Shown here one piece after another: positions 33,475 through 55,300 of a stretch of DNA of 64,000 nt. The notes under the pieces are model-generated. The model made no database searches. It saw nothing but the letters and a program-made list of their open reading frames with translations, and was not told where the DNA came from. The translations under genes and the position numbers were made by a program. Source of the DNA: Takakia lepidozioides (taxonomy: Eukaryota; Plantae; Bryophyta); NCBI GenBank assembly GCA_030704615.1, contig CM060731.1:75082001-75146000 (forward strand), in the 5' to 3' direction. Position 1 is the stretch's first letter, and each line of letters begins with the position of its first letter.

Positions 33475-34656
33475 AACGATTATTTCCCTGAAAGGTGGAA
33501 GTGTCTTGATTCATTCATGATCTGCATAGCTACTTCGTCCATCCACCATCGATGCTGAGAATATTGGCTATGATGTACTATTGAGGCATTTCTTCTTGCC
33601 TATCAACCTTCCAAGAGCCCATAGTGGGATCTACCCAGCATAGGTGGAAAGTCAGCCCATTATTGCTAACTAGTGAAGGGGGAGGGATTTTGACTGATTC
33701 TGGTGATCGTGGAAGAAATCAGAGTGCTGTTCTGATTATGGTGTGGATGGTGGGGCTTCTGCGAAGCTTGAAGATGAAAGTAAATACAATTCAGAATGAG
33801 CTCGATTAGAGGTCCAGCCGTGTGCCCAAGTTTGCTCAGCCTCTGAATTTTGGACATGTTTGTATGTTGCTCATGGTGATCTAATCCGATGGTGGTCGCA
33901 AGGAAGTTCAGATAGTGATTGTAGTTGTATTTCGGTATTCGATGCTGCTTGAGTTGGTTTTGCATGACTCCCTCACACTGTACCATCACATGTTGGAGTT
34001 CAAGGTTGGGGACTCTTCCATTCATTCCACCACTCTGGAACATAATTGCCTTCGGTCTGAGACCGAATTTTGGAGCGTGTATGAAACAATTGTAGAGTAT
34101 TGAAGACATTGTTTAGAGGTCTATGCAGGTATCAGCAATACTGCTAGTGTCTGTGGAAGTAGGTGCTGATTTCTGGCATGACTCCCATCGTTCTCAATAG
34201 CAGCTTTGAGCTGATCTCAAACAGCCCAATAGCTCTCCTAAATACCCACTTTAGCTACATTGAGATCCAGTGGTTCTTCAGTACAGGAGGGCTCATCAAA
34301 ATCATCGAAATATCGAGAATCTCGTTTGCACTCATCACGAAAGAAAATATCCCTAACAGCTTAAATGTTGGTCTCTGTTGGCATTAGCATTGTATGCAAG
34401 TTCATTCCTTTCCGCAAAAACATAGCCGATGCATAAAACTTAGTGGATTTGAGTATTGATAACAAGCAGCCCGTAAATGTACCTGTCAATTGTTTGCCAG
34501 AGTGTTGGTGAAGGTGATAGATAAACGTCATCTCAAAAATATTGGAGGGTGTTAAACTCACCCGGTTCTTCAGCTCTGCACTACCATATAACACATACTT
34601 ATTTCCCTTCTTCCATATCATTTGTTGTGACGATGTGCCCAAAATACTTGAAATGT

Positions 34657-34983
34657 TGTCAAGTTATTTTACCACTAGTGTGAAACTAGCTAGGAAATAG
34701 CTAGCTTTTACATATTGACATTTGGGATTGGCCCAAGTGTCAATCCAGGGGTCAAGACAGTTTTAGGCCCTGGAGTGGTTATCTTCACGGCAAGCGCGGA
34801 AGGCTCATCTTTCTCGAGTTGAGCCTCACCGCGCCTAGCTATGGCGCCGTAGTGTGTATTCCCCATGGCGTGGGGTGCACTTGGCTTGACTTGTATTTGA
34901 GTGATGAGGTTATATATGCATGAGTTTATGCTTCAGCTTTGTGAGCTCGCATAAGCTTGTGCTTGTATTCTTCTTCTTTATCA
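34657..34983 (+). repeat. Terminal repeat A1 of the outer element
   Basis: Matches 51877-52204 with about six substitutions and one indel, counted by eye. Confidence 0.9.
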
Positions 34984-36429
34984 CTCGATAAAGATGAGCT
35001 CCTATATGTGAGTGTCAGATACGAGTTAGTTGTAGCACTTGTGGTTTTTGCTTGAGAATGAGAGAAACCAGGTTGTTATGCAAGGAGCACCGTGGAGCTC
35101 TTGGTTGTTAGAAGCGGAGGCGATGTGGGTTACGAGGTGATAGACCTTGACATTCGATCTTCAGCTTCAGAGATGAAAGCACCATGCTGCATGTAATTCC
35201 AGAGCGCCTTGATGGTTTCAGATTGTGTACATGCATGAGCAAGCACGATGGGGAAGAGGACCAGTCAAGAGCAGGTTATAGTGGCTTTGGTGGCAAAGCT
35301 GAGAACTGGACTAGGGAATGCAAGCTTTCATTGTGTAAAGGATTGCGAAAGGGCTGATTTGGCTTGGGGCAAATCAGTGCACTTTGTGGAGTATGTTGAG
35401 ATTGGGTTTCAATCTCGAGCTTCAGCATTGAGAGGGCTCTTGTCATGGCAAGAGCAGGGCTGGAACAGGAGCTAAGAGGTGCGGCAAGGCCATGGAATGT
35501 GCACCTAGGGTTTCAGAGCTTGGAAGAAGAGCTCTTGCACCACAAGAGGAGTGTCTTGTGGTTGGAAATGTAAGCCTTAGGGTTTCAAGAGCTTGGCAAA
35601 GGCTGTGGAGTGCTTAGTCTTGTCTTAGAGAGCATCAAGGAGCCAAGGAGCCAAGATAGGGCGCTGATACCTCTTGTGTGAAGAGGTTGCATGTGTGGAG
35701 CATGTATTCAGCTCATTGAAGCTTCCATCTTCAAGCATGGAGGGCAAGTAAGGAAGAAGGAAGGGCTGACTTCCCTTATGTGAGGGCAATGCATGTGTGG
35801 AGCATGCTTTCAGCCTGTTGAAGACTTGTACTTTTAGGTTTGGGAGTGCAAGAAATGAAGCAAATGAGCTGATTCTCTTATGGTGAGAGTGGGGCATGTG
35901 TGGAGCATGCCTTCAGCCCATTGAGGCTCTTGTTTTCAAGCTTTAGAGAGCTAGAACGGAAGGTCTAGGGCTGGTTTCCACTTGGAGTGAAATAAATGCA
36001 CTTGTAGGACCTATGTGAATTGGGGTTTCAACTTCAAGCTTGAAGGGAGCACAACTCTTGAAGCAGCAGGTGCAGGGGCTGGATTAGGTGCGAAGGGCAT
36101 GTTGTGGTCAAGAAAAGCACGTGAATGAGTGCCTACAAGGGCTGGAAGTCAGCCATGTTTGGTTAGTCGTCATAGGGATCAATGACGTTGTTTTGTGATT
36201 TAAAAGGAAGCTTGTGCACTTAGTTTCGGCTGCAAACATCTTCCTTTGGAATTAGAGCTACTATTGGTGGTGTGTGGGGGGCCATAAAGAGCAAGAATAC
36301 ATTGTTGATTTCCTCACAGCCGCCATAGCTCGGTGTAAAGAAGCCTAGAGTCCAAGAGACACAAACCCTAGCTTGGCGTGGCTAAACCCCTTGGAGAAAT
36401 GGCTAAACTGCCATGAGTGGCCATAGATG

Positions 36430-36970
36430 GGGCTGTGACAGGCTGTGCCGTGTGGCTTGTGCCCTGTGGCCTGTGGGGCTGTGACGGGATGTGACAGGCT
36501 GTGATGGGTTGTGGCGGGCTGTGACAGGCTGTGCCCTGTGGCCTGTGGAGCCGTGACGGGCTGTGAGGGCTGTGACAGGTTGTGCCCTGTGGCCTGTGGG
36601 GCTGTGACGGGCTGTGACATGCTGTGATCTGTGGCCTGTGGGGCTGTGAGGGGCTGTGATAGGCTGTGACATGTGGCCTTGGGGGCTGTGACAGGCTGTG
36701 ACATGTGGCCTTTGGGGCTGTGACGGGCTGTGACATGTGGCCTTTGGGGCTGTGACGGGCTGTGACAGGCTGTGGCCTGTGGGGCTGTGACCTGTGACCT
36801 GTGTAGGGCTGTGACGGGCTGTGATCTGTGGCCTGTGGGGCTATGATCCCTGTGACCTGTGTAGGGCTGTGACAGGCTGTGACAGGCTGTGATAGGCTGT
36901 GACTTGTGGCCTTTGGGGCTGTTATGGGCTGTGGGGCTGTGGCCTGTGTGGGGCTGTGACGGCTATGACC
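36430..36970. repeat. Low-complexity tandem array of ggctgtga(c)/gtggcct/gggg units in the retrotransposon leader
   Basis: Dozens of gtgacgggct / gtgacaggct / gtggcctgtgggg units. Confidence 0.85.
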
Positions 36971-37726
36971 AGTGATCTATGTGGGCCTGTGTTGGTCTGT
37001 GGTGGCCCGTGTTGACCTGTGGACGGCCTGTGCTGACTCGTGGAGGCACTGGTGGACTGCCTAAGGACTGACATGTGGTCTTTAAGGCCGAATTTTGAAG
37101 CTCGTGGAGGGCGGTTTGAGGAGTATCTTATTCCCATGGTCATACAAGTGAGGGAAGAAATGAGAGGAAGAGTGTGGGATGAGGGCATACTGGGGTTAGG
37201 CATTGCTTTAGCTTCTCTTCCTCGTAGTTTTCCACCCTCTCATTAGGCCAAGACCTTTCCGTAGGTGGAGGCAAGAGTCAGTCCGGGTTTGGGCTGGGGT
37301 GTCCTTGCAGGAGCAACACCGTGGAGTTGTTTTTGGTGTGGGGGAGTTGTCGTTTTGATTTCTTGTGTTTGGATCCCCTCCATACCTGCATGCTTGACTG
37401 TACGTCATGTTAGTTTTGTATGGGCGCTTGTTTTTAAAGGTGATTGGTCCGGATTTGATCACCGGTCAGTCCTAGAACATGCTGTCGATGGTGAGGCTGA
37501 GGTGATGACCAGTCAGACCATCATTGTTTTTCCTGTGATAAGGTTGGAGGTGATGACCAGCCAACCGTAGGAGTGCTTGCGGTGGATGCAGGTGCAGGTG
37601 AAGGCTATGTTAGGAACCCAGTATTCCAAACCATAAGCCGCAACAGGTTCTCTACCCAGTTACCTTGTGGAGAGGGGGTTAGGGACATGTTCATGACCGG
37701 TTGAGTGACAGTTTGTCAACACGGAG

Positions 37727-39076
37727 GTGCCACTAGTTGTTGGGGACAGTGCCGGTTCGAGCACTAGCGATACTAGTGGATACACGAGACGAGGTGTGCG
37801 GTTTAGGCCACCTTCACCTCCTGTGTCTTCTACGGAAGGTTCTGATTCGGATTGTGAATCAGGAGGACTCAAACCGGCGGTGCAAGTTGTTTCCTTGCCA
37901 TTGTTGTGGGACACAATGGAGGAGATGTATCGAGCTACCAAGAGGCCACGAAGGTACTCTGGGGCGGTGAGCACCATCGAGTTGGATGACTTTATCCAAG
38001 AGTTTGATAGTTGGTGTGATTTGCAGCAAATGCGCAATCCACAACTATTTACGCCTTTCATGGCATGGAAGGGGTTGTTTCAGCACCTTGAGGGGCCGCC
38101 TATGGATGATTACCATGAGTTCAGGCGGGGGCATGAGGTTGAGATCGAGGAGTGGAGAATGTACTGGTCACCCGACTATGTCTCCATCACTAGGGGCACT
38201 AGAGCCACGAGGGCAGTGACTACACCTGCCGTTGCACCAGCAGCTTCAGCAAGCAGTAGTGGGACTAGTGGGACTGGTGGTACCGTAGCTACGACGTCCG
38301 CCCAAGCCACTACTGCACCAGCACCAGTACCCGTGCCTGCCTTCAACCCTGTTGTGGAGTTCTTCGAAGAGTTGAGAGGGAACTACCAAGGGGTGAGGAC
38401 AGAGAAGTTGCGGAGCTTCCAAGAGTTCCAATGGAAGCCTACAGAGAGCTTGAGGGAGGTTTTCACTCGCATGAGGCGCTTGATAAATGTAACCCAAGGG
38501 GTTACGGAATCTCAGGCAGTCCAATTCTGGTATGGGATATTGGACAATGAGCTGAGGAGAAGGGTGCGGGATGCAACTCTCCTAAAAGCGGCCCAACCCA
38601 CTTTAGCAAATGTGTTTCTGCTGGCAGAGCGGATAGAGCTCAACATGGTGGAGGAACGAGTGGTCATGGTAGGATTTGCTAAGGAGACACCACGGGGTAG
38701 TGGTGCTCCTAGCCAACCACTATCTCAACATGCTCAAGGCAACAAGGGGACCCAGGTGAAGCCCAGGGAAGGACAGAGAGGACCTCAGATGCAGGGGTCT
38801 CTCCCTTCATTTGCAGGCCAACAACGGGTAGAGGTGGTGTGTTGGACATGTGGAGGACCCCATGTCAAGAAGGATTGCCCAGAGGGAGGCAAAGGGCCGA
38901 CATATGCACAACCTACACAGTTGCAGTGTGGGCATTGTGGCAAGCACGGGCATGGAGAGGCCCAGTGTTATGGTTTGCATCCTGAGTTGCGCCCAGGCCA
39001 GTTCCAAGGAACGATAGTGGCCGGGGGCAAGGTGGGGCAGCCCAGAGAGGACGAGGTGGCCAGGCACGAGGTGTAG
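37727..39076 (+). pseudogene. Gag of outer retrotransposon
   Basis: 449-aa ORF with a retrotransposon-gag-like core (FQWKPTESLREVFTRM) and zinc knuckles CWTCGGPHVKKDC and CGHCGKHGHGEAQC. Confidence 0.8.
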
Positions 39077-39417
39077 GCCGAGGGCAAGCTCAACATGGCC
39101 AAAGACGCGGAGGTCAGGGTGTTGACCAAGGCATGGCCAACCGGCTTCAGCAACTAGAGCAGAGGCTTGTTGCCATGGCTACAACTTAGGTGGTACCGGC
39201 TCCAAGACCGGATGGTCCACCTCCTGCTCCTGAGGGAGGAGATATGGGAGGCATGGGATTCATGTGCGGAGCAGCACTACCACTAGTGTAGGTGGAGTCT
39301 GCTGCAGCCGTGACTCGAGGAGCAGCACGAGTTCTTGAGCCACGAGTTGCAGAGGTGGAGTTGGATCCATAGCCTGGGGAGGCAAGCCGTCAGACTAGGC
39401 TTCCTCAGTCATTCACA

Positions 39418-40464
39418 TTGGCGGAGACAGTGTCGACGCCATCCATGGCACCTAGTTCTCGCCCGACTGTTACCGAGGCGGAGGTTACTATGCCATTGGG
39501 GAGAGCTACACGGGCAGCACCACTACCTAGTGTTGCCAAGGCTACGGCAGCTAGTGTGTTGCTGGGAGCGGCCACATCTGTGTGTCAAGCTCCATTGTTC
39601 TCGGCTACCATGATTGCGACGCCGGGGGTAAGACCAGCTGAGGTGTTCAGGCTGGCAGCTATACTCTGTGAGAGTGGTGAGGTTACTTCATCTTCTGTGG
39701 AGATAGTGGGAGGTGTAGTGCCGGAGGGATCCTCGGATTTGAGGATCAAGACTGCCACGGTGGCGCCATGGCAAGCTATAGTTGCCAGGTTGATGGAGTT
39801 GTCAGCTAGGCCAGCCATTGAGCGCACCATAGTGACACCTAGAGTTGTCGTGTTAGACAACCAGGATGACATTTTCTGTTTGAGTGGACCGGCATGCAAG
39901 AGGTACCGGCCACTGCGGGTCTTGTTGGACTCGGGAGCTCAGCCATTGATGCTGGGTAGAGCTGCTATTGTAAGCTTGGGCCTCACGGAGGCGGATATAG
40001 AGCCTTGTCCTTTCCAGATACAGACGTCTCTGGGAGGATCGGAGCATGCTCGGGGCATGACACGGGCTATCAGACTACAACCGGATCACCCTTTAGATGG
40101 CTCAGTGATGCGAGCCAAGGCCATTGTGACAGACGCAATCTTGTACGATGTCCTGGTTGGTGGGGCAGTGTTGTACCCTATGGGCTTCACCCTGGATTTT
40201 TGGGAGGAGTCAGCTTCCTATAGGCCTGGATGGCAGTCAAGGGAGGACCGACGTGTGCAGCTCCCTATGACGTTCATAGGAGAAGTTGCGGTTGCCCAGC
40301 GGGGCAAGATGCCGATACTAGCAGCATTCACAGCTGCAGTGACTTGGCCTGGAGAGTTGCTAGAGGGCAACGCTCATTCAAAGGTTGACACACCTCCAAG
40401 AGAACAGGATGACATGTATGCTATGACGGAGTTGTCTGCCATGGTTGCTCAGACTCCATTGTAG
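39418..40464 (+). pseudogene. Aspartic protease region of outer retrotransposon
   Basis: VLLDSGAQPLML ... YDVLVG. Confidence 0.75.
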
Positions 40465-40695
40465 GGCACGAGCAAGGATTTGCAGCGGGCTGCTGATCGA
40501 CGGGTGCAACAAGCCTGGGTGGAGGTTTTTGTACCATCAAGAGAGGAGGAGAGTGCGGGGATTGCACCAAGACCACCTCAGTTGTCACCATTGGATACCA
40601 CACCTATTGTGTGGCAGTATCCGGATGAAGGCATTTGTCTTCTGGACTTGTTTGGCGGGATCAACACCAGATTGGCTGCTGTGTTACAAGCAGGT

Positions 40696-41422
40696 TGTCG
40701 CGCACCTCACTTCGGTAAGCTCCCCTTCAAGTCATAGTTACTCGCTTTGATGCGCGCGCCTGACTCCCAACCTGGCCGCCGGGCCAACTTGGAGCTTCGG
40801 CTGCTCACCGGGACATAACGGTCCCCCTTCGCTCTCCCACTAAACCCTCCACCTGTTTGGGCCTAGTGGAATTCCCTTTGATAGATGGCAGTCCGGAACA
40901 GCTCCCCACTCTTTGGTCGCTTTCCGGCTCGCTCGCTTACTCACTAGTTTTTGGTCACCAACGGGCTTGCACTGTTCTCGGGGTCACTACTCCCCTTATA
41001 TATACTTTTGTAGCTGTCCGCGGGGGTTTCACAACCAGCCATGCCATTTTATGGCGAACCACCACGAAAACCCTCGACTCCCGGTGATGAGTCGCGGTGA
41101 GTCTTGGCCCACTCACCACGGCCCCTATGGACCGTGATGAGTCCCAAGACTCCCCACGACTCCCACCACGAGTCTCCGCCCCCATGGTGAGTCGTATGCC
41201 ACCCCCACTAAGTCCCGCTAAGCTACCACCACCCCTTGTGGAGCCACCCCCACCGCAACCCGGTGTGCGGGGCTCCACCTAGTGAGCGCCTCCGCTTCCC
41301 TGAGTGCCTTGGGCACTCAAGGGTGCTTCAGCCCCCCATACCTATCGCTGCCGCTGCCCCCACCACAGGGGCAGCCCCTCATGTGTCCCGACCCCCTGCC
41401 CTCAAGGCAAAGGGCCGCGACA
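40696..41422 (-). repeat. 3' LTR of nested chromovirus
   Basis: tgtcgcgc...ccgcgaca; differs from 46408-47129 by only a few substitutions and indels. Confidence 0.95.
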
Positions 41423-42347
41423 CACACCCCTACCAACAGGGAGTCGATGTCCTCATCGACTTGTCCATTTTGTAGAAACGAACATCCAAGTTGTGGCGTC
41501 CCACATCAAGGAGTTTGTTTCCGTACCATGGCGTCCCATGGCAAAGAACCAAACCCCACACTTGACTCTACTCTCCACTAGCTAGTTTGGCCGACTTCCT
41601 CCAAGTCCCGGCCAAGGGTGGAGCCTCTCCAGCTCCTCCCAGTGCACTCTTCTTGGCCTACTTCAAGGCCAAGGAACGATCATCCCCGAGGATCGAATCG
41701 CCTTACTGCAACATTGCTTGTGACCGCTCATGATGCCGCTTTTGGCATCACCTTGAGCAAGGGTTCCCTAGAACCCTCTTTGACTAGGAAGATAACCTTG
41801 AACCAACCGTGCGCCCCAATCACTACAATTGGGTCCGCCTTGGAATGCTGGCCTGAGGTACGGGAACACGCCGAAGCCGCACTACGACTTTGTCCCGAGG
41901 CTACACGATTATAGTACGTGAACGGAAGCACGTAGCTTCCGCATTAGCCCGCACTACAAGGCAACCCCCTCGGTAGCGCAGTTATAGTACGCGCACGCGC
42001 CAGATGCGCACTAGCACGTGACCTCCCAAAGAAGGCGCAAGTTTCCTTGCCCCTTGGATGGGGGTCACCCGATTTTGACACTACGCAAACACACGATTAA
42101 CCCAATTTACCTCTCCCACTTTTATAAGCTAGCATGCATTCTATACACTAGCCAAGCATACCATGCATCACCATTCCAAACAAAATAGGACGCACAACAT
42201 TTGGAAGCCATTTCATTTATAGCACATTTTGTACAATACAAGTTTTTGCAATCGGATTCCTAAGCTAGCTAAGCCGGGCTAAGCATGCATTTCCTCCCCC
42301 ACGCTCCAAGGTTGATGTCCCCATCAACGCTTCTTCCGCTTTTGAGA

Positions 42348-45300
42348 TCACCCTTCGAAAGCTGCAACCGCCTCGGATGCGTTTCCCATTTCTGAGGCAC
42401 GCACCCAAGATGCCTCCACATGATGATAGCCCTTCCATTTGACGAGATACTTCGTTTCTCGGTTCTTGAACCTCCTCGACTTAAGTATTGCCTCCACCTC
42501 GTATTCAGGTTCATTTTCATGATCCAACAGCATAGGTGGCGGACGCAACACTAGATGCCGATTCGGACGCGCTTCATCTTTGAAGTAAGGCTTCAAAAGG
42601 AGACATGGAATACTGGGTGCACCTTGCTGTTTGCCGGCAGCTCCAATTCATACACATCCTCATTCATAACCTTCCGAATGCGAAAGGGTCCCGCATACGG
42701 AGGTACGAACTTCGGACTCACTTCCGGAGGTAGTCGGAAATTCTTGATGTTCAACCAAACCTCCGTGCCTGCCTCAAACTTCACTTCCCTCCGCTCCGAT
42801 TCGCCTGCCTTTTGTACCGTTTCCTAGCTTTGGCAATGTTGTACTTTGCGAGCTTCAACAAACGCTCGCGTTCTTCCAGTACCGCCGCTACTGCCGGTTC
42901 CTCAACGTCCTGGGCGGCCCAACTTGTCGGCACCAGAGGTGCTTTTCCATAGACCAATACGAAAGGGGAAACTCCCGTTGCGGAGTGTTCTGTGTTATTA
43001 TAACAGAACTCTGCCGCGTCTAAGTGTTCCACCCAGTCTGTTTGGTCTGCCGACACGTAATTCCGCAAGATCTGCTTCACTACGGAATTCACTCTTTCTG
43101 TTTGGCCGTCGGTCGTAGGTCGGAAGGCAGTGCTCATCTTCAGCCTCGTCCCCATCTTCTTCCAAAGTGTCCTCCAAAATTTACTCGTAAACTTTGGATC
43201 GCGGTCCGAGACAATATCCTTCGGGACTCCATGATGCTTTAAGACGTGGGCAAAGTAAAGTCGCCCTGTCTCCTGCGCCGCTGCTTTCTACTTAAAGCAT
43301 CGGCCACCACGTTGTCTCGTCGCGGTTTGTACTGGATATCCACGTTGAACACCGCCAAAGTATCTTGCCACCTAAGTTGTTTTGGGGACAACTTGGGTTG
43401 CGTGGCAAAATACTTCACCGTGGCATTGTCCGTGAACACCTTCACTGGGTTGGAACCAACATAGTGGCGCCAAAGCTCAAGACAGTGCACCACCACCTTC
43501 ATCTCTTTCTCGTACGTCGGCCACCGTCGCTCCACTTCATTCAGTTTCTTACTTTCGTAAGCCACTGGACGTCCATCTTGCATCAGTACACCCCCAATCG
43601 CGAAGTCCGACGCATCTGTATGAATCTCAAATGGACGATCGAACTCCGGGATTTTCAAGACTGGAGCTTCCGCCATCCGCTGCTTCAATTCAGCAAAACC
43701 TTGGCCACAAAATGTGTTCCATACCCAGACTTTGGATTTATACAGAAGGTCCGACAGCGGCCCCGCGATCTTGGCGAAATTTCTCACATACTTCCGGTAA
43801 TAGGAGGCGAGTCCTAGGAAGGATCGCACTCCCGGGACCGAAGTCGGAGGCTCCCAGTCCAAGATCGCCCTCACCTTTCTGTCATCCATTTTGATCCCAT
43901 CCTGTGTAATCACATGCCCCAGGAACTCCACTTTTTGTGACCCCGAATTTGCACTTTGAAGCTTTGGCATACAGCTTCCCTTCCCGCAATTTCTGGAACA
44001 CCCTTTTGAGGTGCTCCAGGTGCTCCTCCTTTGTTTTCGAATATACCAAGATGTCGTCGATGTACACGATCACAAAGTCATCCAACCACTCCTGGAAAAG
44101 GCTGTTCATCAGCGTGCTAAATGTTGCTGGTGCATTGGTGAGCCCAAAAGGCATCACCAAGAACTCATATGAACCATACCTTGTCCTGCACGCGGTCTTC
44201 TCCTCATCTCCTTCCGCCACCCGAATTTGATGATAGCCGGAGCGCAAGTCGATCCGGCTGAAATACTTCGCTCCTGCCAATCGATCGAAGAGGTCGTCGA
44301 TCCTTGGCAAAGGGTACCGGTTTTTTATAGTCACCTTATTCAGAGCCCTATAATCGACACACATCCGCAGCGTCCCATCCTTCTTGTCTGCAAATAGCAC
44401 CGGGGCTCCGTAAGGTGACTTACTCGGCCGGATGTACCCCTTTGACATTAGATCCTTAAGTTGAGTCTTTAGCTCGACCAACTCCCTGTGGCTCAACCGG
44501 TAGGGTGCCTTGGCAGGCGGTTCCGATCCCGGTATCACCTCAATCTTGTGGTCAACTCCTCTTCACGGTGGCAAGCCGCTTGGTAAATCCTCCGGCATCA
44601 CATCCTGGTATTTCTCCAAGATCCCCTTGATCCAATCTGGGCTCAGCTCCCCATCGCCTTCTCCCTTCACTTCTCTAATGTAAAGCAAAAACTAGGGCTC
44701 GTGTGCCTCCTCCATGACCCACTCCCTTGCTGACAGAAGGTTTATTCGCCCTCCCACGGATTTGGGCGTTTCCGACACTCATAAAACCTCGTCACCATTC
44801 CCACATGGCAGCGTGACTACTCTCTTGCGGCCATCTATGACCGCTCCGGATTTGCTCAAAAAGGTCATCCCCAAATGAGATCCACTCCATCGATCTCGCA
44901 GATGGTGAAGTTCTCACGTCCCTCCCAACTCCCCAGTTGAAGAGGAACATCAAACGCCAACCTTGTCGCCAACTGTGGTTCTCCTTTGGCAGAACGCATC
45001 TCAATAGAGGCCCCCACGTCACTTGTCGGGAGTCCCAACTTTCGCGCCGCCGCCGGCGTCATGAAGGAGTGCGACGCTCTTGTGTCCACCAACAACGACA
45101 CGTTAGTTCTGGATATTATCCCATCCACGAACAATAACTGACTCCCTTTACGCAGGGCGCCAGTTTCCTGATACAACTCACAAGAATAGTTGCATACCTT
45201 GCAAGTCCTGGCGACCACCGCTTCCACCAAGCGACTGATGGTATCTTCCAACAGCTCCGTGGTTGCCCGAGTCATGTTCAATTGTCGAGGTTTTGTACAC

Positions 45301-46354
45301 TTCTTGGCCATGTGCCCGGGCTCCCCGCAATTGAAACACACTCCATCAAAGGTCGCCTTCTGTCCGCCATAAGCCGCTCCACCCGCTTTTTCTTTCGAAG
45401 TACCGGGTGCCGCCTTGACGTGTGAAGGCCCTCCCTTCGATTTCCACGTGCCATTGTCGCCGCGTGGCCTATCCCACTTCTTTTCCGGTCGGAAGGAGTC
45501 ACCTTCCCGTCGGGTCTTCTTGTGGTTCAGCTCCGTACGGCCTTGTCTCTCACCCTTAGGGACATCCGAGATCAGCCCTCTCAATTGCCTCGTTCAAAGT
45601 CTTGGGTGGCTTCTCCTCCAACTTCCGCCTGGCCCATGGGGCCAGTCCCGCCACAAAGTTGAAGACCATTTCTGGTTCTGCCATGTCCGCGACTTCGAGC
45701 AACAGCACATTGAAAGCCTGGACATACCCCCGAATGTCATCTGTTTGCTTCAAATTCCTCATCTTGTCCCGGGCAAGCCAGGACGCGTTGAGGGGCACAA
45801 ACTGTCTCTTCATCAATTCCTTGAACCACTCCAGTTCAAGGTTTCCGGGCTTGGGCCTCGGTCGTGAAGGCATTTCTGCCACCATTGTTGAGCATAGCCC
45901 CTCAAATAGGTGGAAGCCACTTCCACCCGATCCTCGTCACTCAACTTGGCCGCCCGGAAGTACTGCTCTAGCTCCAGGAGCCAGGTGTTGAGTGCCTTCC
46001 GATTTCGGACGCCCTGGAAGATATCGGGTTCCTTAGGCTTCACCTTAAACTTTGCCTTAGTGGAAGTGGCATTAGCCGCCTTCAACACGTCTTTCAACGT
46101 CCCGCCAAACTGCGCCAACAACCCTTCCCAAAAAGTTGCCGGCATGGGAGGCATCTGTTGGTCTGTCGGAGCTCTCAGGGATTCCTCGGGCTCCGACTCC
46201 TCGGATTCCTCCCGCTCTTGAGCGGCCTCGTTCTCAGAAACCTGCGTCGCTTCCTCAAACGGCCGCTTTGGTGACACGTCGCCCCCATCCGGCTCACCAG
46301 GATCATCATCTTTTGGGCCGTTCCGCTTTCGCTTCGGCTTGCCCGACCCCATGA
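42348..46354 (-). pseudogene. gag-pol of nested chromovirus (frameshifted, integrase N-terminus deleted)
   Basis: CFNCGEPGHMAKKC knuckle; LLVDTRASHSF protease; [10 protein letters not shown] and [11 protein letters not shown]; HTDASDFAIG...DALSR RNase H; TDGQTERVN and YAGPFRI integrase; YEVEAIL..YLVKWKGY...SW chromodomain. Confidence 0.9.
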
Positions 46355-46392
46355 TGAGGCCAATCCCAAGGACAATCGCGTACTGAACTCTA

Positions 46393-46405
46393 GGCTCTGA
46401 TACCA
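46393..46405 (-). promoter_or_regulatory. Primer-binding site complementary to initiator tRNA-Met
   Basis: Minus strand tggtatcagagcc, 2 nt after the 5' LTR. Confidence 0.9.
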
Positions 46406-46407
46406 AG

Positions 46408-47129
46408 TGTCGCGCACCTCACTTCGGTAAGCTCCCCTTCAAGTCATAGTTACTCGCTTTGATGCGCGCGCCTGACTCCCAACCTGGCCGCCGGGCCAAC
46501 TTGGAGCTTCGGCTGCTCACCGGGACATAACGGTCCCCTTCGCTCTCCCACTAAACCCTCCACCTGTTTGGGCCTAGTGGAATTCCCTTTGATAGATGGC
46601 AGTCCGGAACAGCTCCCCACTCTTTGGTCGCTTTCCGGCTCGCTCGCTTACTCACTAGTTTTTGGTCACCAACGGGCTTGCACCGTTCTCGGGGTCACTA
46701 CTCCCCTTATATATACTTTTGTAGCTGTCCGCGGGGGTTTCACAACCAGCCATGCCATTTTATGGCGAACCACCACGAAAACCCTCGACTCCCGGTGATG
46801 AGTCGCGGTGAGTCTTGGCCCACTCACCACGGCCCCTATGGACCGTGATGAGTCCCAAGACTCCCCACGACTCCCACCACGAGGTCTCCGCCCCCATGGT
46901 GAGTCATATGCCACCCCCACTAAGTCCCGCTAAGCTACCACCACCCCTTGTGGAGCCACCCCTACCGCAACCCGGTGTGCGGGGCTCCACCTAGTGAGCG
47001 CCTCCGCTTCCCTGAGTGCCTTGGGCACTCAAGGGTGCTTCAGCCCCCCATACCTATCGCTGCCGCTGCCCCCACCACAGGGGCAGCCCTTGTCCCGACC
47101 CCCTGCCCTCAAGGCAAAGGGCCGCGACA
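46408..47129 (-). repeat. 5' LTR of nested chromovirus
   Basis: Near-identical to 40696-41422. Confidence 0.95.
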
Positions 47130-48472
47130 CAGGTGTACGAGTTTGACGTTACATGTATGTGGAGAGGGATGAGACTGCACGACGCGTTTCATTTCGCCAT
47201 GTTGCTCAGTTGGTGGAGCAGTACCCTGAGTTGTTGCCGGTGTCTGCAGTTTGTGGATATCAGCAGGCCTTGCCAGCAGACATTTCGTTGCTGGGGGCGC
47301 AGGATTTTGGAGTGGGTTGGCTCCATTGATCTGGTAGTGGCAGGTTGGCCCTGCGAAGGGCATTCATCAGCCGGGCATGGCAATGGATTACGAGACTCGA
47401 GGTCGGGTCTGTTTTGGGAGATGGTGCGGGTTTTGCGCCACTTGCAGCTTCATCAAGCTGTATCTCCAGCATATATCTTGGAGAATGTGCCACTGATGGG
47501 CGATTCTCGGGCCAGGATGATGGCCAGTGTGCATCAAGTCCGGTCGTAGCTTGGGTCAGCAGTGTTGCTAGATGCAGCTACAGTGGGGTCACGGGCTCAT
47601 TGTCCACGGCTATGGTGGACTAATTTGATGTCACCTGCACTGCTCAAGCGTGCATTTGATGGGGTGCAGCGGCCAGCACACCTCACAGTGGATAGCATTT
47701 TGGACACAGGGAGGCAGTCTCAGCGTGTGAGACACGATAACCGTTCACCTTTGGCAGTGGTCAACAAGGTGCGTCAACCACAAGCAGCATTACCTCCACT
47801 GCTCAGCTTCCCAGGATCGCATGCTTTCCGGGATAGTGGACCTGGCCTCCTATGGGATGTTCAGTTGTAGTAGTTAGTGGAGCCTAATGCTGACGAGCGT
47901 GAGCGGGCAATGGGTTTTACCACTGGTACCACGGCGGTGCTGTCTCTTTCTAAGGCATCACGTCGTCAGGTGTTGGGGCAAGCAATGGATCTCAATTGCT
48001 TGACCTGGATTATCAGCTTGGCTATGGCTGAGCAACGCAGAGTGCGGAGTACACTTCCCTCGATGGTCTCTCTGCCTACCGAGATGGTACAGGCAGTGAG
48101 TGGGGGCGAGCATGAGAGGACCACGGGGTATAGGCATCCATGACACATGTGGGAGGTGCTCGAGGTTCAGAGGGAGTTGGCAGCCAAGGTGGCGGTGATG
48201 GATGAGGTTGGGGATTTTTCTCGGGTTGAGGAAGTCCTCAAGGATGAGATGATGGGGCAGGATGAGGCATTGTCATTGACTGAGCAGGTAGGGAGTACTG
48301 CTCAAGAGGTTGCAACATAACAACCACTGGACGCGTCCTCTACCTCTAAGCCCACTGGACTTAAGGTTGCAGTTACGGATGACAATTGGGAGCCTGACCC
48401 ATTGTCACCGGAGGAGAGAGACGACGTATACGGCGGTTCCTGAGGGCTTACAAGAATTGCTTTGCCTTCAGT

Positions 48473-49812
48473 TTGAAGGACTTGGGAGCACTGAAGGGTC
48501 AAGAGATTCATATTGAGTTGACCACTGACACGCCAATCTTTCGGAGATCCTATAGATACAGTGACATGGAGAGGTCTTTGATTCAGATGAGGACTCAAGA
48601 TCTCTGGGAGGCTGGTTTGGTGGAGCTATCTGGTGGAGAGTATGCTTCAGCCACAGTGATGCCAACCAAGAATGATATCTATGGCAATTGGACGGAGAGA
48701 CGTATGTGCGGTGATTACCGGCCTGTAAATCGTCAGACCAAGTCCGATAAGTATGCCATGCCAACACCATAGGAGATCTTTGATGCCATCGGGCATGCTA
48801 AGGTCTTTAACACTTTGGATTTACGATCCGGATATCACCAGTTGCCGATCAAGGAGGCGGACAAGCAGAAGACGACATTCTGGGGGATCAATGAGCACGG
48901 CAAGGATTGCCTATACCAGTGGCGGTTCTTACCATTTGGGCTTAAGAACGCTCCTGCAGAGTTTCAGAGAGTCATGGATAGGATTCTAGCAGGGGTGGAC
49001 TTTGCTCGGTGCTACATAGATGACATCATCATCTTTAGTGCTACGGTGGAGGAGCATGAGAGGCACCTTCAGGTGGTATTGGAGCGCTTGAGAGCGCACG
49101 GATTGAAGTTGCATCCAGGGAAGTGCAAGTTTTTCCAGAACCAGATTGAGTATCTGGGTCACATGATATATCCTGGAGGATTGGGGGTATAACAGACTAA
49201 GATAGAGGCCATTGCACAAATTCCACGCCCCACGGATGTGAGCCGAGTTCGAGCTTTCATGGGGTTGACAAACTATTATAGACGGTTTGTCAAGGGATTT
49301 AGTGCCATTGCAAAGGCTCTAACCAAGCTGACCAAGAGTGGCAGTGGGAAGATGAGCAGGAACAAGCTTTTCAAGAGCTCAAGGCAAAGTTGACCTCGGC
49401 GCCTATCCTGAGACGACTTATCAGGGGGCGTCCCTTTTAGCTGTATACGGATTGAAGCATGCTGGGGCTTGGAGCGGTGCTCACATAGGTGGATGATGAG
49501 GGAAGAGAGTTCGTAGTGGCTTATGCTAGCCGCTCGAACAACGCTGCAGAGGCTAAGTATAGCTCATATGAGGGAGAGTGCTCAGCTGCAGTGTGGGCCG
49601 TGGCACACTTCAAGTGCTATCTATACATCAATCTCTTCACCCTTGTCACGGATCACCCACCACTCAAGTGGTTGATGGAATCAGACAAGCTTACGGGGAA
49701 GCTTGCACGGTGGGCACTCATAGTCCAGGAGTATGACTTTCAAGTTGTGCATCGACCGGGTTTGGTCAATTGGGATGAGGATGGATTGAGTCGCAATCCG
49801 TGCATGAGCTAG
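48473..49812 (+). pseudogene. Reverse transcriptase and RNase H of outer retrotransposon
   Basis: [40 protein letters not shown]; VVAYASRS, LVTDH, DGLSR; several stops. Confidence 0.9.
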
Positions 49813-50012
49813 TAGGATGACACTGGAGCTCGGTGGCATGGTGAGACAGACGAGGAGATGGTACTGGGATGACATGCATCTGCCTTTTTGTGTATCTTGG
49901 CATCGGGAGGTCAGGTTGGACCTACAATAGGAATGACTGTAGACGGAGTGTCTGAGGACCCTGAGGCTAGTGATGAGTCAGGTGGTACCGAGATATACAT
50001 GAGGATTCGGCT

Positions 50013-51146
50013 GTGTTGGACTACCTCCGTACTGGAGACACGACAACCACTGTGACTGCCAAGGAGAGGGATCGGATCCTGCAACGAACCAAGAGGTTCA
50101 AGTGGGAGGGGATACATCTGCTCCGAGTATGGGAGGATGGTCGGGTGAGGATTGTGCATCACCCCACACAGCGTGCACGGTTAGTGCGGCATGCCCATGA
50201 GGAGTTGGGGCATTTTGGAGTGCGACGCACTCACAGTTTACTTCAAGGGCAGTATTGGTGGCGTGGTATGCATACAGAGGTGCAACAGTTTGTGGCTAGG
50301 TGCATGGTGCGTGACAGTGTGCGTGCTTCATTCAACGCCCCTACACCACAGTTGCATCCTTTACTAATCACGGGATTGGGCTACAAGTGGAGTCTTGACT
50401 TCGCAGGACCGTTGCCACTGACTATGCGCCACCATAGATATGTGTTGGTGATGGTGGAGCACTTCTCCAAGTGGATTGAGTTGGTTCCATTGCCTGACAA
50501 GGCTAGTGAGGGGGCTACGTATGCATTCTTGGATCGTGTGCTTAGCCGATTCGGTGCTCCAGCTGAGATACTCACGGACCAAGGGAAAGAGTTCTTGGGG
50601 GAGTTTCAGGCTTTGTGTGATAAAGCCTTGATAGACCACCGCACCACTTCTCGGGATCATCCTGAGGCCGATGGCTTGGCAGAGAGAGTTGTTCAGACGG
50701 TAAAGAGGGGTTTGCGCAAGTATGGCTTGCAGAATGGACACCTAGGAGATTGGGATCTTCAGGTGCCTTGGTTAGCCCTGGGCTACAGGTTCAGCAAACA
50801 AGCATCACTTGCCTCATTCTCACCATATTCCCTTCTCTTTGGCCGAGAGCCGGATTTGCCTGCAGCCATTCATATGGACACTGCTCAAGTCCTTAACCTT
50901 GACGATCCGGACGTGTGGGTACGTGCATGTGATCAGCGTGCAGAGTTGTTCAAGAAAGTCATGCCCATGGCTTTTGAGAACCTTACCATTGCACAGCACC
51001 GTGATACGTTGAGGTATGTCATTATACGTGGTGGAGGATATCGTCCTGGGGTTCAGAGGTTTAGCCCGGGTGACTATGTTTATTTGCAGCAGACTACTCA
51101 TACGACCCTAGATGTCACTGCAGGGCGTGTTATTCTGAGGGTTTGA
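50013..51146 (+). pseudogene. DDE integrase of outer retrotransposon
   Basis: HEELGHFG..YWWRGM, SLDFAGPLP, ILTDQGKEF, HPEADGLAERVVQTVK. Confidence 0.9.
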
Positions 51147-51293
51147 GAGGTGTTGCCCTCAGGAGTCCTGATCTTGGAGGGTCGGGATGACATGACTTGG
51201 AAAGACCATGTGCGTAATTGTGCGCCATGTCACCTTCCCAACGTCGATGACAGAGTTGACCCAAACTTGGCAGTGGTACGTGCAGGTTTGAGG

Positions 51294-51417
51294 TGCATGC
51301 TCTGTGTGTCTACCAGAGGGGCAACTACCATGCTGGTGTGTGATCGATGCTCAAGAAGTTGGCTTGACACCACCTCTTGAGAGGGTTCCTGATGGAGATT
51401 GGTTATGTCCACACTGC
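51294..51417 (+). pseudogene. PHD finger at the C-terminus of the outer pol (small internal deletion)
   Basis: CMLC....MLVCDRCSRSW / LTPPLERVPDGDWLCPHC; the central HxxC is missing at a frameshift. Confidence 0.75.
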
Positions 51418-51686
51418 TTGGGATAGTGGCAGTGGACATGACTAGAGGCAGCTAACAAGACATGGGAGGCCAAGCTCATAGGAGTCAATATACGAGATCC
51501 CAGGCTCAAGTTCATAGGTTGCGAGACGGCGACTAATGATGGGGCAACTCTTGCACCCGGCCTCTTGATCTATCGAGTTTGAGTGTAGTAGGGACAGTGG
51601 TGGAGGACTTCGTGAGGCTATGGTCACTATCACATCTTGTGGCTACCTGGACTTAGAGGGACCTAAGCACCAGCTAGGGGGGCGAT

Positions 51687-52381
51687 TGTGTGGACTAGTG
51701 ATTGCCATAGTGGGCAGCATACTGGCAGCCTAGTGATTGACTAGTTGTAGCCTATTGGTTGGACTAGTGGCTGGACTAGTGGTGGATTAGTGGTATACTA
51801 GTGTGTGGTGTGCATATGTGTTGTGTGGTTTTGGACAGCGATGTAGTTGTGTAGCGATATGTATGCGCACGACAGCTGTCAAGTTATTTTACCACTAGTG
51901 TGAAACTAGCTAGGAAATAGCTAGCTTTTACATATTGACATTTGGGGATTGGCCCAAGTGTCAATCCAGGGATCAAGGCAGTTTTAGGCCCTGGAGTGAT
52001 TATCTTCACGGCAAGCGCGGGAGGCTCATCTTTCTCGAGTTGAGCCTCACCGCGCCTAGCTATGGCGCCGTAGTGTGGATTCCCCATGGCGTGGGGTGCA
52101 CTTGGCTTGACTTGTATTTGAGTGATGAGGTTATATATGCATGAGTTTATGCTTCAGCTTTGTGAGCTCGCATGAGCTTGTGCTTGTATTCTTCTTCTTT
52201 ATCATTGTATGGACTAGTGATTGCCATAGTGGGCAGCATAATGGCAGCCTAGTGACTGACTAGTTGTAGCCTAGTGGTTGGACTAGTGGTGGACTAGTGG
52301 TATACTAGTGTGTGGTGTGCACATGTGTTGTGTGGTTTTGGACAGCGATGTAGTTGTGTAGCGATATGTATGCGCACGACA
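51687..52381 (+). repeat. 3' repeat block B1 (51687-51874) - A2 (51877-52204) - B2 (52206-52381), preceded by a PPT-like agggggg
   Basis: tgt(g/a)tggactagtgattgcc...tgcgcacgaca occurs twice, flanking the second copy of repeat A. Confidence 0.9.
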
Positions 52382-55300
52382 ATGCGATTGACCATAATCG
52401 TTTAGACATACCCTTCCAAATATGTAGCCGCACATGCTCTCTAAAAGGTTATGGTCAATCATATTTCAAGTTTTTTAGTCACAACGCATGACATGGAAGA
52501 AGGGAAAAAAATATATGCGGTATATAGTGCAGAGTTGAAGAACCGGGTGTGTTTAACACCCCAAATATTTTTGAGATGTCGTTGGGACTAGAGGTCCTCA
52601 TTCGCATTCCCCTGATTGGTAGAAGATCTGAGCAGGTCTTCAAGTGGGATGGGAATGGCCAGTGGGTTCCGACTCTTATTAACATCTCCGACACATCGAT
52701 CTTTAACAAAACATGGCTATCCAAAGTGCCCAGGACGAACAAGCACTCTTGGCAGTTTTCTCCATCTGGAGTAACATATTCCTACGTGCATTTCATTCTT
52801 ACTCACGGATATTTTATTTTAGCAACATTGTTGTGATTATATAGTGGTGGTGCATTTAAAGGTTTTATTTCAATTGCTTATTTTGTTTTGGCGAAATTAG
52901 CTTCTGCATAACATGATAGATTTCTGATACTAATACTTGTGCATAAGAGTGGGCAATCCCTGTAAACGGATGTCTTGCATTCTCCTTCGGAAATGATGTT
53001 GAAGGATCTTTAACCTCAGCTGCAAATGAGGTCTTTGGCCATCAATCACTCGTAATCAATATTAGCTTCAGTATACTTGTTCTGTGGTGGTGCTGCTCAA
53101 TTCCTTTTCCTTCAAAATTCAGGTTTATGGCTATGTACCAATGTATATGTCTGCAGTATGCTTACTAACAGGCATTGACTCTCCGTTGTCTTCATAAGAT
53201 ATAGGTTACAGATCAGGAAGAGGTTTATAACTGCTGAGTTCCATTGTTTGTTTGTCAACTGATCTTGCAAATGTGTTACCTCTTGTAACGTTGAGATCTC
53301 TCAAACAACAAGGCTTCCTTCGGGTGCTTAATACCGATGGAAAGCCCTCGATGAGTATGGTGCATCGAGATGGTCTCATAATTTTTGGACCTATGATGTG
53401 GGAGATATTGAATTCCAGACATTTTTTGTCACAAACAATTCATGAAAAATAGAAAATTGGTTCTTTTTGGGAATATTGGCCCTTCATTTGTCTTTTGGTG
53501 TTATAAGTGTAAATATGTATATATTTACTGAAACGATGGTACAATATTTGCTCATGCGGCACAAGCCACACTAGTGAAAATAAAATAAAGATTTATAAAG
53601 TTACGTATTACAAAAGTTTTCATCTTAAAAAATAAAAGTTCAATTGAACGATGATTCTAAAGATATTTCATAGAAAGAGTTTGTTGCACATCAACATTTA
53701 TGATTTCTTAATGAGCTTAAAAAAAAGATGTGATTGCGCAACTAGAAGTGAATAATTTTTGTTAACAAAATTATATCAAAATTATTCACAGATAGCATGA
53801 AATTTTTACATCTAATGCATCCGACAACCATGACTATATAAATATTACGATAATTAAAATAAATATGTATGGTCACTAGCAAACGTGCATCATGAGGAAA
53901 TATGACACATACGATATAATTTTTTTATCATGTTAATAAATAAACCTATAATCCTATAATATTTTATAATAAAACTTATAAAATTGTATCATGTATTTTG
54001 AGGAAATTATACAAATCTTGATATCTTCATAAAACTATAATTGATAAATTAATAAGTTGTAACAGTTGTCTTTTGTTAGAGTGAACTCCTAACCAACAGT
54101 CTTTACAACCTATTTGTACAAAAGATGACCTAGTTCGTCCAATTGTGTTGTTGGAGACAAATATGGTGGACAAGGGCATATAGGGCAATTAGGAGGTTTC
54201 TTATAATCATAGGTGTAGCTTGATTCTCCTCTAAATAAGGTCTTTGTTGGCCAGTCAGGGATGATGGGTGGTGGATCCACCCACTTCTTCGGAAAGTGGT
54301 GATAATAAGTTGTTTCTTGGGGATTTGCATGCCTGTGTATATCCAATATACAACCTTTGTTAATGAATTTTGTAAGCAAACAAAGACACATGATGCAATG
54401 GTTAGGGCATATGGTTGTCTTGCAAATACTAGTTGTTGAACCATTCTATGGGACTAAGTAGGAGGTGAAATGTCAAAGGAAATTCAATTGATGTTAAGAT
54501 ATAGTAACATTCTTTTCCCTGTGGGGATTTTCAGCATGATACTCATATACACAAAAATCGTTGTAGAGTTCTTATATTACCAACCTGAAGACTTTTATTG
54601 GGTCTACTGGAGGGGGATGTATTGGTTTTTTCGTATATTTATCCTTCATTTCTGAAGTCCCGGTCTTAAATCCTTCGTCGAAAGGGAGGATCTTCTTGGA
54701 AGGGTCATGTTGAGGCCACACTGGCCAAGTTAGGCAGTTGTGTGTCCCACAAGTGCAAAGTTTGCACACACACAACTTTGTACGACTCTATGTCCATCAA
54801 GGTGTTGAGAGCAAAAATTGATACCAAGGTCAGTCTAATGGCGACAAATTATCACAAATAAAAACTGCATGAATGATATTTTATATGTAAAATCTGCTCA
54901 CATCATCTCTCATATATGTATATATACCCCAACCCTCATCATTTTTTGACCGAATATAACATGCAGATGAGAGATGACGTTGTCCGAAGCCAGTGTACTG
55001 CCCCCTTTGTATAATTTTGTTGGGTTTAGTGGATATTGCAAAGTTTATTTCTCGACTATCCCCCGTTTTCATTAAATCTCTCTTAATTACACGATTATTT
55101 CAATTTGCTGACACAGGCTGAAACTACTTGGTAGAAGGAAAGCAAGTGAATTAGAAAGTTGGATAACTTTAGTTGATGAAAAAACCTTAACTTGACAATA
55201 CATAAACTAAAATTGAGAAGGGGAAAAAAAAAGCTATAATCCTTCCATTTGTGCTCATAAGATGGGTTAAAGTGCAAGATTTTGCGTTGACTAGCTTTTC

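Follow-up and report, generated by a model that had tools for sequence, protein, structure and literature searches.

A DNMT3-like cytosine methyltransferase domain in a Ty3/gypsy retrotransposon of Takakia lepidozioides with split terminal repeats and a conserved, probably leaky stop codon

We analysed a 64,000-nucleotide stretch of the Takakia lepidozioides genome (assembly GCA_030704615.1, contig CM060731.1, forward-strand positions 75,082,001 to 75,146,000; hereafter the window) and found in it a decayed, dead copy of a Ty3/gypsy retrotransposon that encodes a C5 cytosine methyltransferase (MTase) domain between its protease and its reverse transcriptase (RT). Profile scores and a predicted fold support the assignment of this domain to the non-rearranged DNMT3 type, substitution ratios indicate that it is under purifying selection like the RT, and between the two domains the family carries an in-frame stop codon that is predicted to be read through. 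With a probability of roughly one half, we propose that the enzyme is packaged in excess and, once the protease has released it, methylates newly made double-stranded cDNA within the virus-like particle, ahead of integration. Cytosine methylation is the main tool of plants against retrotransposons, and since it silences them, the question arises of what an element would gain by keeping a DNMT3 of its own under selection.

The host element spans positions 34657-52381 (Table 1) and measures 11.3 kb when a nested 6.4-kb chromovirus is excluded. A Pfam scan combined with comparison to relatives gave the domain order gag-protease-MTase-RT-RNase H-integrase-PHD; the PHD finger was scored by Pfam in the relative P0363 and not in the window copy, where it is frameshifted, the gag frame (37916..39007) had no Pfam match and the protease matches were weak, below the cut-off. 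An earlier note on this stretch had placed the MTase between protease and RT, which holds, with the correction that the MTase and the RT, which share a frame, are separated by the conserved stop. The note had also called the copy dead, and it is more broken than was stated there, with extra stops and frameshifts; besides the MTase, each remaining part of the element is interrupted by one or the other. For comparison, contigs from four sequencing runs, representing at most three samples, were aligned to the window, and loose contig ends fall at 39009, the site of the gag frameshift.

The nested element splits the MTase directly after motif I and is flanked by a 5-bp target-site duplication, CAGGT, at 40691-40695 and 47130-47134. 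Its removal at this duplication rejoins the domain as the earlier note had described, with LLDLFGGINTRLAAVLQAG followed by VRV*RYMYVERD, GWPC, ENV, AHCPRLWWTNL, ERERAMGF and RRQVLGQAMD, and contigs lacking the nested element connect 40690 directly with 47130 in all four runs. In a Pfam search, a check that the note had proposed for the reconstructed domain, the stretch from 47301 matched DNA_methylase at 42.8 bits (cut-off 22, E 6e-11). The whole domain, written with an X at each break, covered all 327 positions of a profile built from natural relatives and scored 401 bits. Within the domain the reading frame shifts near 47307-47312, additional stops lie at 47547 and 47868-47873, and both the first Arg of the HRxR motif and the Gly that follows motif I have decayed; two adjacent MTase stops of the window have another letter in about 99% of the depth of the run contigs. 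Read through these breaks, the domain shares 70% identity with Marchantia P0003 and with Calypogeia P0005, and 69% with the relative P0102. In run X1, the summed contig depth was about 2e5-1e6 over the element and 92-267 over its flanks; the family is thus very abundant, depth being a measure of abundance and not of copy number.

In the nested element itself, the long terminal repeats (LTRs) agree at 717 of 721 aligned bases; the element also has a primer site TGGTATCAGAGC and a chromodomain (Pfam Chromo, 46.5 bits). Its family is about as abundant in the runs as that of the host element. It keeps its CpG (observed/expected ratio 0.90), and the remainder of the window is depleted (0.45-0.52).

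To place the enzyme among known MTases, we compared the family profile with solved structures. DNMT3A scored highest (75.7 bits), followed by DNMT3C and DNMT3B (69-65), DRM-type enzymes (46-39), M.HhaI (36) and DNMT2 (29). The profile is colinear with DNMT3A from motif I to motif X; its positions 1-134 align to the C-terminal part of the DRM chains, and the permutation of the DRM type (motifs VI-X before I-V) is absent. The structure predicted for P0102 (predicted local distance difference test score, 90.5) had DNMT3A/B as its top Foldseek matches (E 7e-19) and superposed on them with Z 29 and a root-mean-square deviation of 2.5 over 273 residues, as compared with Z 25.4 for a bacterial CpG enzyme and Z 24 for M.HhaI. 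Among 284 distinct full-length domains, the catalytic motifs G[WF][PE]C, EN[VTI] and HRxR were present in 250, 233 and 256, respectively. Profile ranking, colinear alignment and predicted fold thus back the earlier reading of a non-permuted, DNMT3-type motif order, and scores and modelled fold alike favour DNMT3A/B. Viral contigs yielded only phage-type methyltransferases (15 loci, 22-53% identity over short stretches), which served as tree outgroups.

The domain is a feature of the family and not of the window copy alone: other host copies, in all four runs, lack the insertion, and dozens of relatives carry the domain at the same position. A protein search returned 65 longer relatives, many of them Marchantia polymorpha gene models, together with Calypogeia fissa and two Sphagnum species, in which the domain follows the protease; Marchantia paleacea and Closterium were further named relatives, and 80 metagenome loci supplied the DNA context of relatives. 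We call the closest subfamily Sphagnum-like because the S. troendelagicum protein P0117 is 90% identical to locus L018. A profile search extended the set to 528 clusters at 50% identity (E up to 1e-30). In the best 150 of these 528 clusters, the domain lay after RNase H or before integrase in 97 and after protease or before RT in 10, and 43 had no other marker. The RNase H-MTase-integrase arrangement was named from Scenedesmus, Pleodorina, Tetrabaena, Volvox and Monoraphidium, that is, volvocine and other chlorophytes; 40 integrase matches were RT-RNase H-integrase proteins whose sequence covers no upstream DNA. A land-plant lineage of elements, as the earlier note had envisaged, is borne out by the host and its closest relatives, but the Closterium and chlorophyte relatives mean that the elements are not confined to land plants. 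Two family proteins, P0094 and P0447, are filed under Obscuribacterales and Spirochaetia in NCBI metagenome bins and are likely mis-binned eukaryotic fragments. The Marchantia proteins P0068, P0069, P0070 and P0073 are copies annotated as V sex chromosome genes.

As the note had suggested, we estimated the ratio of nonsynonymous to synonymous substitution rates (dN/dS). Against five close loci, the window gave 0.09-0.11 for the MTase, 0.07-0.10 for the RT and 0.11-0.13 for the integrase. The unsaturated pair of open copies L045/L047 gave 0.12 for the MTase, 0.07 for the RT and 0.62 for the linker. The MTase values of 0.09-0.12 in the informative pairs point to purifying selection on this domain, as on the RT.

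The stop codon between MTase and RT is TAA in the window. Its third base, 48320, is G in all four runs (99% of the depth in X1), and positions 48318-48319 and 48321-48326 have no variant of 5% or more in any of them; the family sequence is therefore TAG CAA CCA. Of 35 close loci, 31 have the downstream motif, and 30 of these 31 have the stop (23 TAG and 7 TAA; the remaining one has TAC). The context after the stop is CAA CCC ATG in most close loci, which belong to the Sphagnum-like subfamily, and L045 and L047 have TAG CAG TTA. Seven Marchantia proteins end 92 residues past motif X and Calypogeia P0005 ends 94 residues past it. The TMV-type (tobacco mosaic virus, type I) readthrough signal is described as UAG followed by CAR YYA, and readthrough candidates are reported in the rice gypsy element RIRE2 (PMC2754532). 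We therefore regard TAG-CAA-CCA as a predicted readthrough site, which likely makes the enzyme far commoner than the copying proteins. The stop might instead merely end a first open reading frame (ORF), with RT, RNase H and integrase expressed from a spliced or separately initiated message, which we consider somewhat unlikely. The ATG six bases past the stop in the Sphagnum-like subfamily would suit such a message, the gene models P0011 and P0031 (Marchantia and Sphagnum) bridge the region with predicted introns, and no stable RNA structure was found 3' of the stop (z +1.36). Against it, the frame is preserved across the stop in all three stop-bearing subfamilies and CAR follows in each, the full CAR YYA being present in the window family and in L045/L047, where no ATG comes directly after. 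An uninterrupted MTase-RT-RNase H ORF is absent from the window family and present in the L053-type subfamily and in P0356.

The ends of the element are not two LTRs. They have the form A-body-B-A-B, in which a 327-bp repeat A1 comes first and B1, the dinucleotide GC, A2 and B2 follow the coding region; no tRNA primer-binding site (TGG) was found after A1. The same arrangement is common to the window copy and six full-length relatives (L043, L053, L054, L059, L066 and L095), of which five have exact 4-bp target duplications (AAGG, CATA, GGTC, CCAA and ATCC); no matching duplication was found for L059. The earlier designation as a Gypsy retrotransposon stands as regards the Ty3/gypsy domain order and the TG..CA ends, but the split repeats set the element apart from an ordinary LTR element. 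Nor does it qualify as a DIRS, PAT or Ngaro element: an rve integrase is present and no tyrosine recombinase family was found, and Pfam searches of six frames of the 5' region (34984-37916) and three frames of the 3' region returned no family, recombinases included. An 85% inverted repeat flanks the element at 34524-34631 and 52478-52583, which suggests that a small foldback or miniature inverted-repeat transposable element-like sequence was the site of insertion; the other arm of this sequence backs the 4-bp target duplication of the element.

The junctions suggest how these ends are made. Each of the 11 downstream A repeats is preceded by ..ACA and a two-base spacer (GC 4, AC 4, GT 1, AT 1 and TC 1); most of the non-GC spacers are GC altered by a C-to-T or G-to-A change. 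A B end precedes none of the 24 upstream A repeats (at least two pairs represent the same insertion). Solely the outer ends have ever been integrated. We rejected a symmetric circle with two equal junctions, which predicts permuted insertions. Retroviral integrases trim two end bases, and the palindromic junction CA-GC-TG formed by B1-GC-A2 resembles a pair of integrase ends linked by the bases that would be trimmed. For DIRS-1, the ends are described as being rebuilt on the template of an internal copy of their junction (PMC7192593). By analogy, the internal B-GC-A junction likely plays a DIRS-1-like role in end rebuilding, but with a DDE integrase that inserts the product by its outer ends alone. 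Motifs resembling this junction (CA-NN-TG) are present downstream of the integrase at L091:7581, at L067:66 and 6622 (RNase H-MTase-integrase arrangement) and at L045:8652 as well, and L067 contains two copies in tandem; there is thus a hint that split ends extend to the algal branch.

The proposed mechanism would run as follows. Most ribosomes would halt at TAG-CAA-CCA and produce Gag-protease-MTase, and a minority would read through into RT, RNase H and integrase. Gag-protease-MTase would then be in excess, the enzyme would be packaged at the level of Gag and would be cut free by the protease. With the internal B-GC-A junction as template, both ends would be rebuilt with no need for a tRNA primer, and the DDE integrase would trim off the two spacer bases and join the outer TG..CA ends to the target. 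Methylation of the cDNA would precede its arrival and would most likely be at CG, a context we propose because the SymbioDIRS-Dnmt3 domain is reported to methylate CG de novo in yeast (PMC5890265). Such methylated cDNA might mimic host chromatin or tune the promoter of the element, and the PHD finger may read a histone tail at the target.

Several observations weigh against this proposal. Against the window, dS is close to saturated (about 2-3), and the MTase dN/dS ratios of close dead copies are 0.75 (L018/L028) and 0.30 (L053/L066), alongside RT ratios of 0.70 and 0.18. One more distant subfamily (L053 type) has no stop, with 12 of 28 linkers fully open and scattered stops in the rest; the Sphagnum-like context CAA CCC ATG is not the full CAR YYA, and its ATG allows reinitiation; and in the chlorophyte relatives the domain is part of Pol, where it lies between RNase H and integrase. 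The stop-free subfamily and the chlorophyte arrangement mean that dosage at the Gag level is not required across the whole lineage. A Klebsormidium Gypsy domain showed no DNA methylation in yeast, a result that its authors describe as inconclusive, DNMT3B having failed as well (PMC5890265). Finally, codon-junction CpG is 0.30 in the element, 0.79 in the nested element, 0.34-0.37 in host PPR genes and 0.39 in L076, a methyltransferase-free gypsy RT; as the host genes and the L076 RT are equally CpG-poor, the CpG loss of the element does not point to its own enzyme, and we discarded CpG depletion as a diagnostic footprint.

Two other roles for the protein were weighed. An active enzyme might act on host chromatin, either accompanying the integration complex and methylating the DNA around the insertion site, or acting in trans on other copies and so limiting the spread of the family; both options were raised by de Mendoza et al. 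(PMC5890265). That the family integrase ends in a PHD finger, likely a chromatin reader, and that the chlorophyte relatives have the MTase directly before the integrase would fit this role. We nevertheless hold it to be unlikely, as the target duplications listed above, together with ATGY, show no preference for CG, and in the window family the stop parts the MTase from the integrase and groups it with Gag. We judge it quite unlikely that the domain is kept for RNA binding or modification, or to bind nucleic acid as a structural component of the particle and so aid the strand transfers of the split repeats. Its dosage at the Gag level would suit a structural part, the Klebsormidium domain was inactive in yeast, and methyltransferases recur in split-repeat elements, SymbioDIRS-Dnmt3 being the described case (PMC5890265), but the catalytic Cys, Glu and Arg motifs are preserved in most of the 284 domains, and the DNA-methylating DNMT3A/B score far above the RNA-methylating DNMT2.

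The history of the domain was examined with quick LG+G4 tree searches, in which support is by the SH-like approximate likelihood ratio test (SH-aLRT) only, 24 of 83 proteins of the second architecture were sampled, long branches were flagged and the root was not established; the outgroups of the MTase tree were phage sequences only. The window copy grouped with the Marchantia, Calypogeia and Sphagnum-like sequences (support 96 for RT and 100 for MTase), and the RNase H-MTase-integrase arrangement formed one group (99 and 98, respectively). RT and MTase distances were correlated (r 0.67 over 92 elements, 0 of 999 permutations; r 0.92 in the 12 elements of the first arrangement), which points to one old capture. 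The data fit a single capture, after which the domain changed its place in the polyprotein, in one direction or the other. If a single element had once picked up a fragment of a host DNMT3, without function, the broken state of the window copy would be explained, but this reading is extremely improbable given the same domain position in dozens of relatives from several genera, the low dN/dS, the 528 clusters and the correlated distances. Taking ends, stop and trees together, we put forward, as a possibility and no more firmly than that, that one ancient green-lineage Ty3/gypsy branch, spanning chlorophytes, charophytes, liverworts, peat mosses and the Takakia host, captured DNMT3 once, combined split repeats with a DDE integrase and, in land plants, came to load its particles with methyltransferase in the same dosage as Gag by way of a leaky stop.

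Table 1. Features of the host element and its nested insertion (positions in the window)
Feature	Positions	Strand	Evidence or remark
Left target-site duplication, ATGT	34653..34656	+	Right copy ATGC at 52382-52385, 3/4 bases alike
Repeat A1, 5' end of element, starts TG	34657..34983	+	Self-blast, 321/327 alike to A2
Degenerate short tandem repeat in long 5' non-coding region	36417..37001	.	Sequence self-comparison
gag, two CCHC-like knuckles, frameshift near 39009	37916..39007	+	57% identity with the N-terminus of Marchantia P0003
Aspartic protease (LLDSG)	39850..40254	+	Pfam Asp_protease_2, 17.4 bits, below cut-off; 55% to P0003
MTase, motif I part, LLDLFGGINTRLAAVLQAG	40630..40695	+	82-91% identity with P0003, P0005 and P0006
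Nested chromovirus-type Ty3/gypsy element, decayed	40696..47129	-	6,434 bp, 727/722-bp LTRs, TG..CA ends
MTase motifs II-X, four stops and one frameshift	47135..48032	+	Pfam DNA_methylase, 42.8 bits
Family-wide in-frame stop and CAA CCA, predicted readthrough site; TAA here	48318..48326	+	Conservation, CAR YYA context
RT (YIDD) and RNase H, stops and frameshifts	48476..49797	+	Pfam RVT_1, 114 bits; RT_RNaseH, 109 bits
DDE integrase: H2C2 zinc finger, rve core (D, D, E present), frameshifted C-terminal PHD	50001..51420	+	Pfam Integrase_H2C2 and rve, 53.8 bits each
Repeat B1, ends ..GACA, and 2-bp spacer GC	51685..51876	+	Self-blast, junction alignment
Repeat A2	51877..52204	+	Self-blast
Repeat B2, 3' end of element, ends CA	52205..52381	+	Self-blast, sequence

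Elsewhere in the window, positions 420-33474 hold a tandem cluster of intronless PLS-E-DYW PPR genes, with open frames of 879, 1104, 880 and 976 codons, broken copies and one inverted copy. The 303-bp repeats of this cluster are P-L-S triplets that are 84-90% alike within and between genes, which suggests a recent internal expansion of the repeats. Four PPR frames of the window had no entry in the protein collection. Exon(s) of an alpha-glucan phosphorylase lie at 61121-61663 (Pfam Phosphorylase, 50.4 bits). The PPR genes, the phosphorylase exon and the place of the element in the trees all mark the host as a land plant.

The role of retrotransposon-borne DNMTs has been a question since 2018, and such domains were known from algae that are difficult to work with. 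Marchantia polymorpha is a genetic model with many annotated copies that have a complete Gag-protease-MTase frame, so that activity, sequence context, readthrough and cDNA methylation become directly testable. If our reading is true, seed-free plants would harbour, in these high-copy elements, a mobile and so far unrecognised source of de novo cytosine methylation, one missed by LTR finders because the ends are split. Elements with split ends that leave target duplications fall between the LTR and the DIRS type, and how they replicate is a puzzle; copies of this kind may also inflate DNMT gene counts in bryophyte annotations.

Among known enzymes, the catalytic domain of DNMT3A/DNMT3B (PDB 6F57, 6BRR and 6KDA) has its fold, motif order and catalytic residues in common with the MTase of the element, which differs from the mammalian proteins in its identity of about 22-26%, the lack of PWWP or ADD domains, a longer segment after motif II and its encoding by a retrotransposon. 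The stop resembles the described TMV-type leaky stop UAG-CAR-YYA in its UAG, in the CAA CCA or CAG TTA that follows and in having replication enzymes downstream in frame; it differs in being predicted from conservation alone and in following a methyltransferase rather than a replicase or the end of Gag. The non-chromovirus clades Phygy and Selgy (PMC6317226) are described, in the text available, with mention of neither a PHD finger nor a methyltransferase. As for methyltransferase-bearing elements, our literature search turned up no paper that reports Gypsy-DNMT3 elements from chlorophytes or land plants and none that describes the stop, though supplements might list land-plant copies; it drew nothing on this family from PMC9033089, PMC11982613, PMC8616336, PMC9985172, PMC6317226 and PMC7192593. 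PMC12344493 and bioRxiv 10.64898/2026.05.21.726589 speak of 'streptophytes', and the 96-genome table of de Mendoza et al. has no Marchantia or Sphagnum row (PMC5890265).

The closest known systems come from that last study, with which we compared by description. KnitGypsy-Dnmt3 of Klebsormidium nitens, reported as Gypsy elements that have DIRS-like repeats and a Dnmt3 domain, an acquisition of that lineage (de Mendoza et al. 2018, PMC5890265), shares the Ty3/gypsy domains, the intronless non-rearranged Dnmt3-type domain, the A-coding-B-A-B repeats and purifying selection; no K. nitens protein appeared by name among our protein and profile search matches, in which Closterium provided the nearest named charophyte relatives. 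The window element differs from it in its land-plant host and very high copy number and in the conserved stop that cuts the MTase from the RT, whereas the Klebsormidium domain is described within a Pol ORF with RT and RNase H; the 4-bp target duplication and the CA-GC-TG junction are not among the features described in the text available. SymbioDIRS-Dnmt3 of Symbiodinium likewise combines a Dnmt3-type domain with the A-coding-B-A-B repeats of a retrotransposon, but is described with a tyrosine recombinase in place of the DDE integrase and target duplications seen here. The parts of the element and its split ends were thus already known; what our analysis adds is the land-plant host, a wider family within the green lineage and the stop, through which the enzyme would become part of the Gag product.

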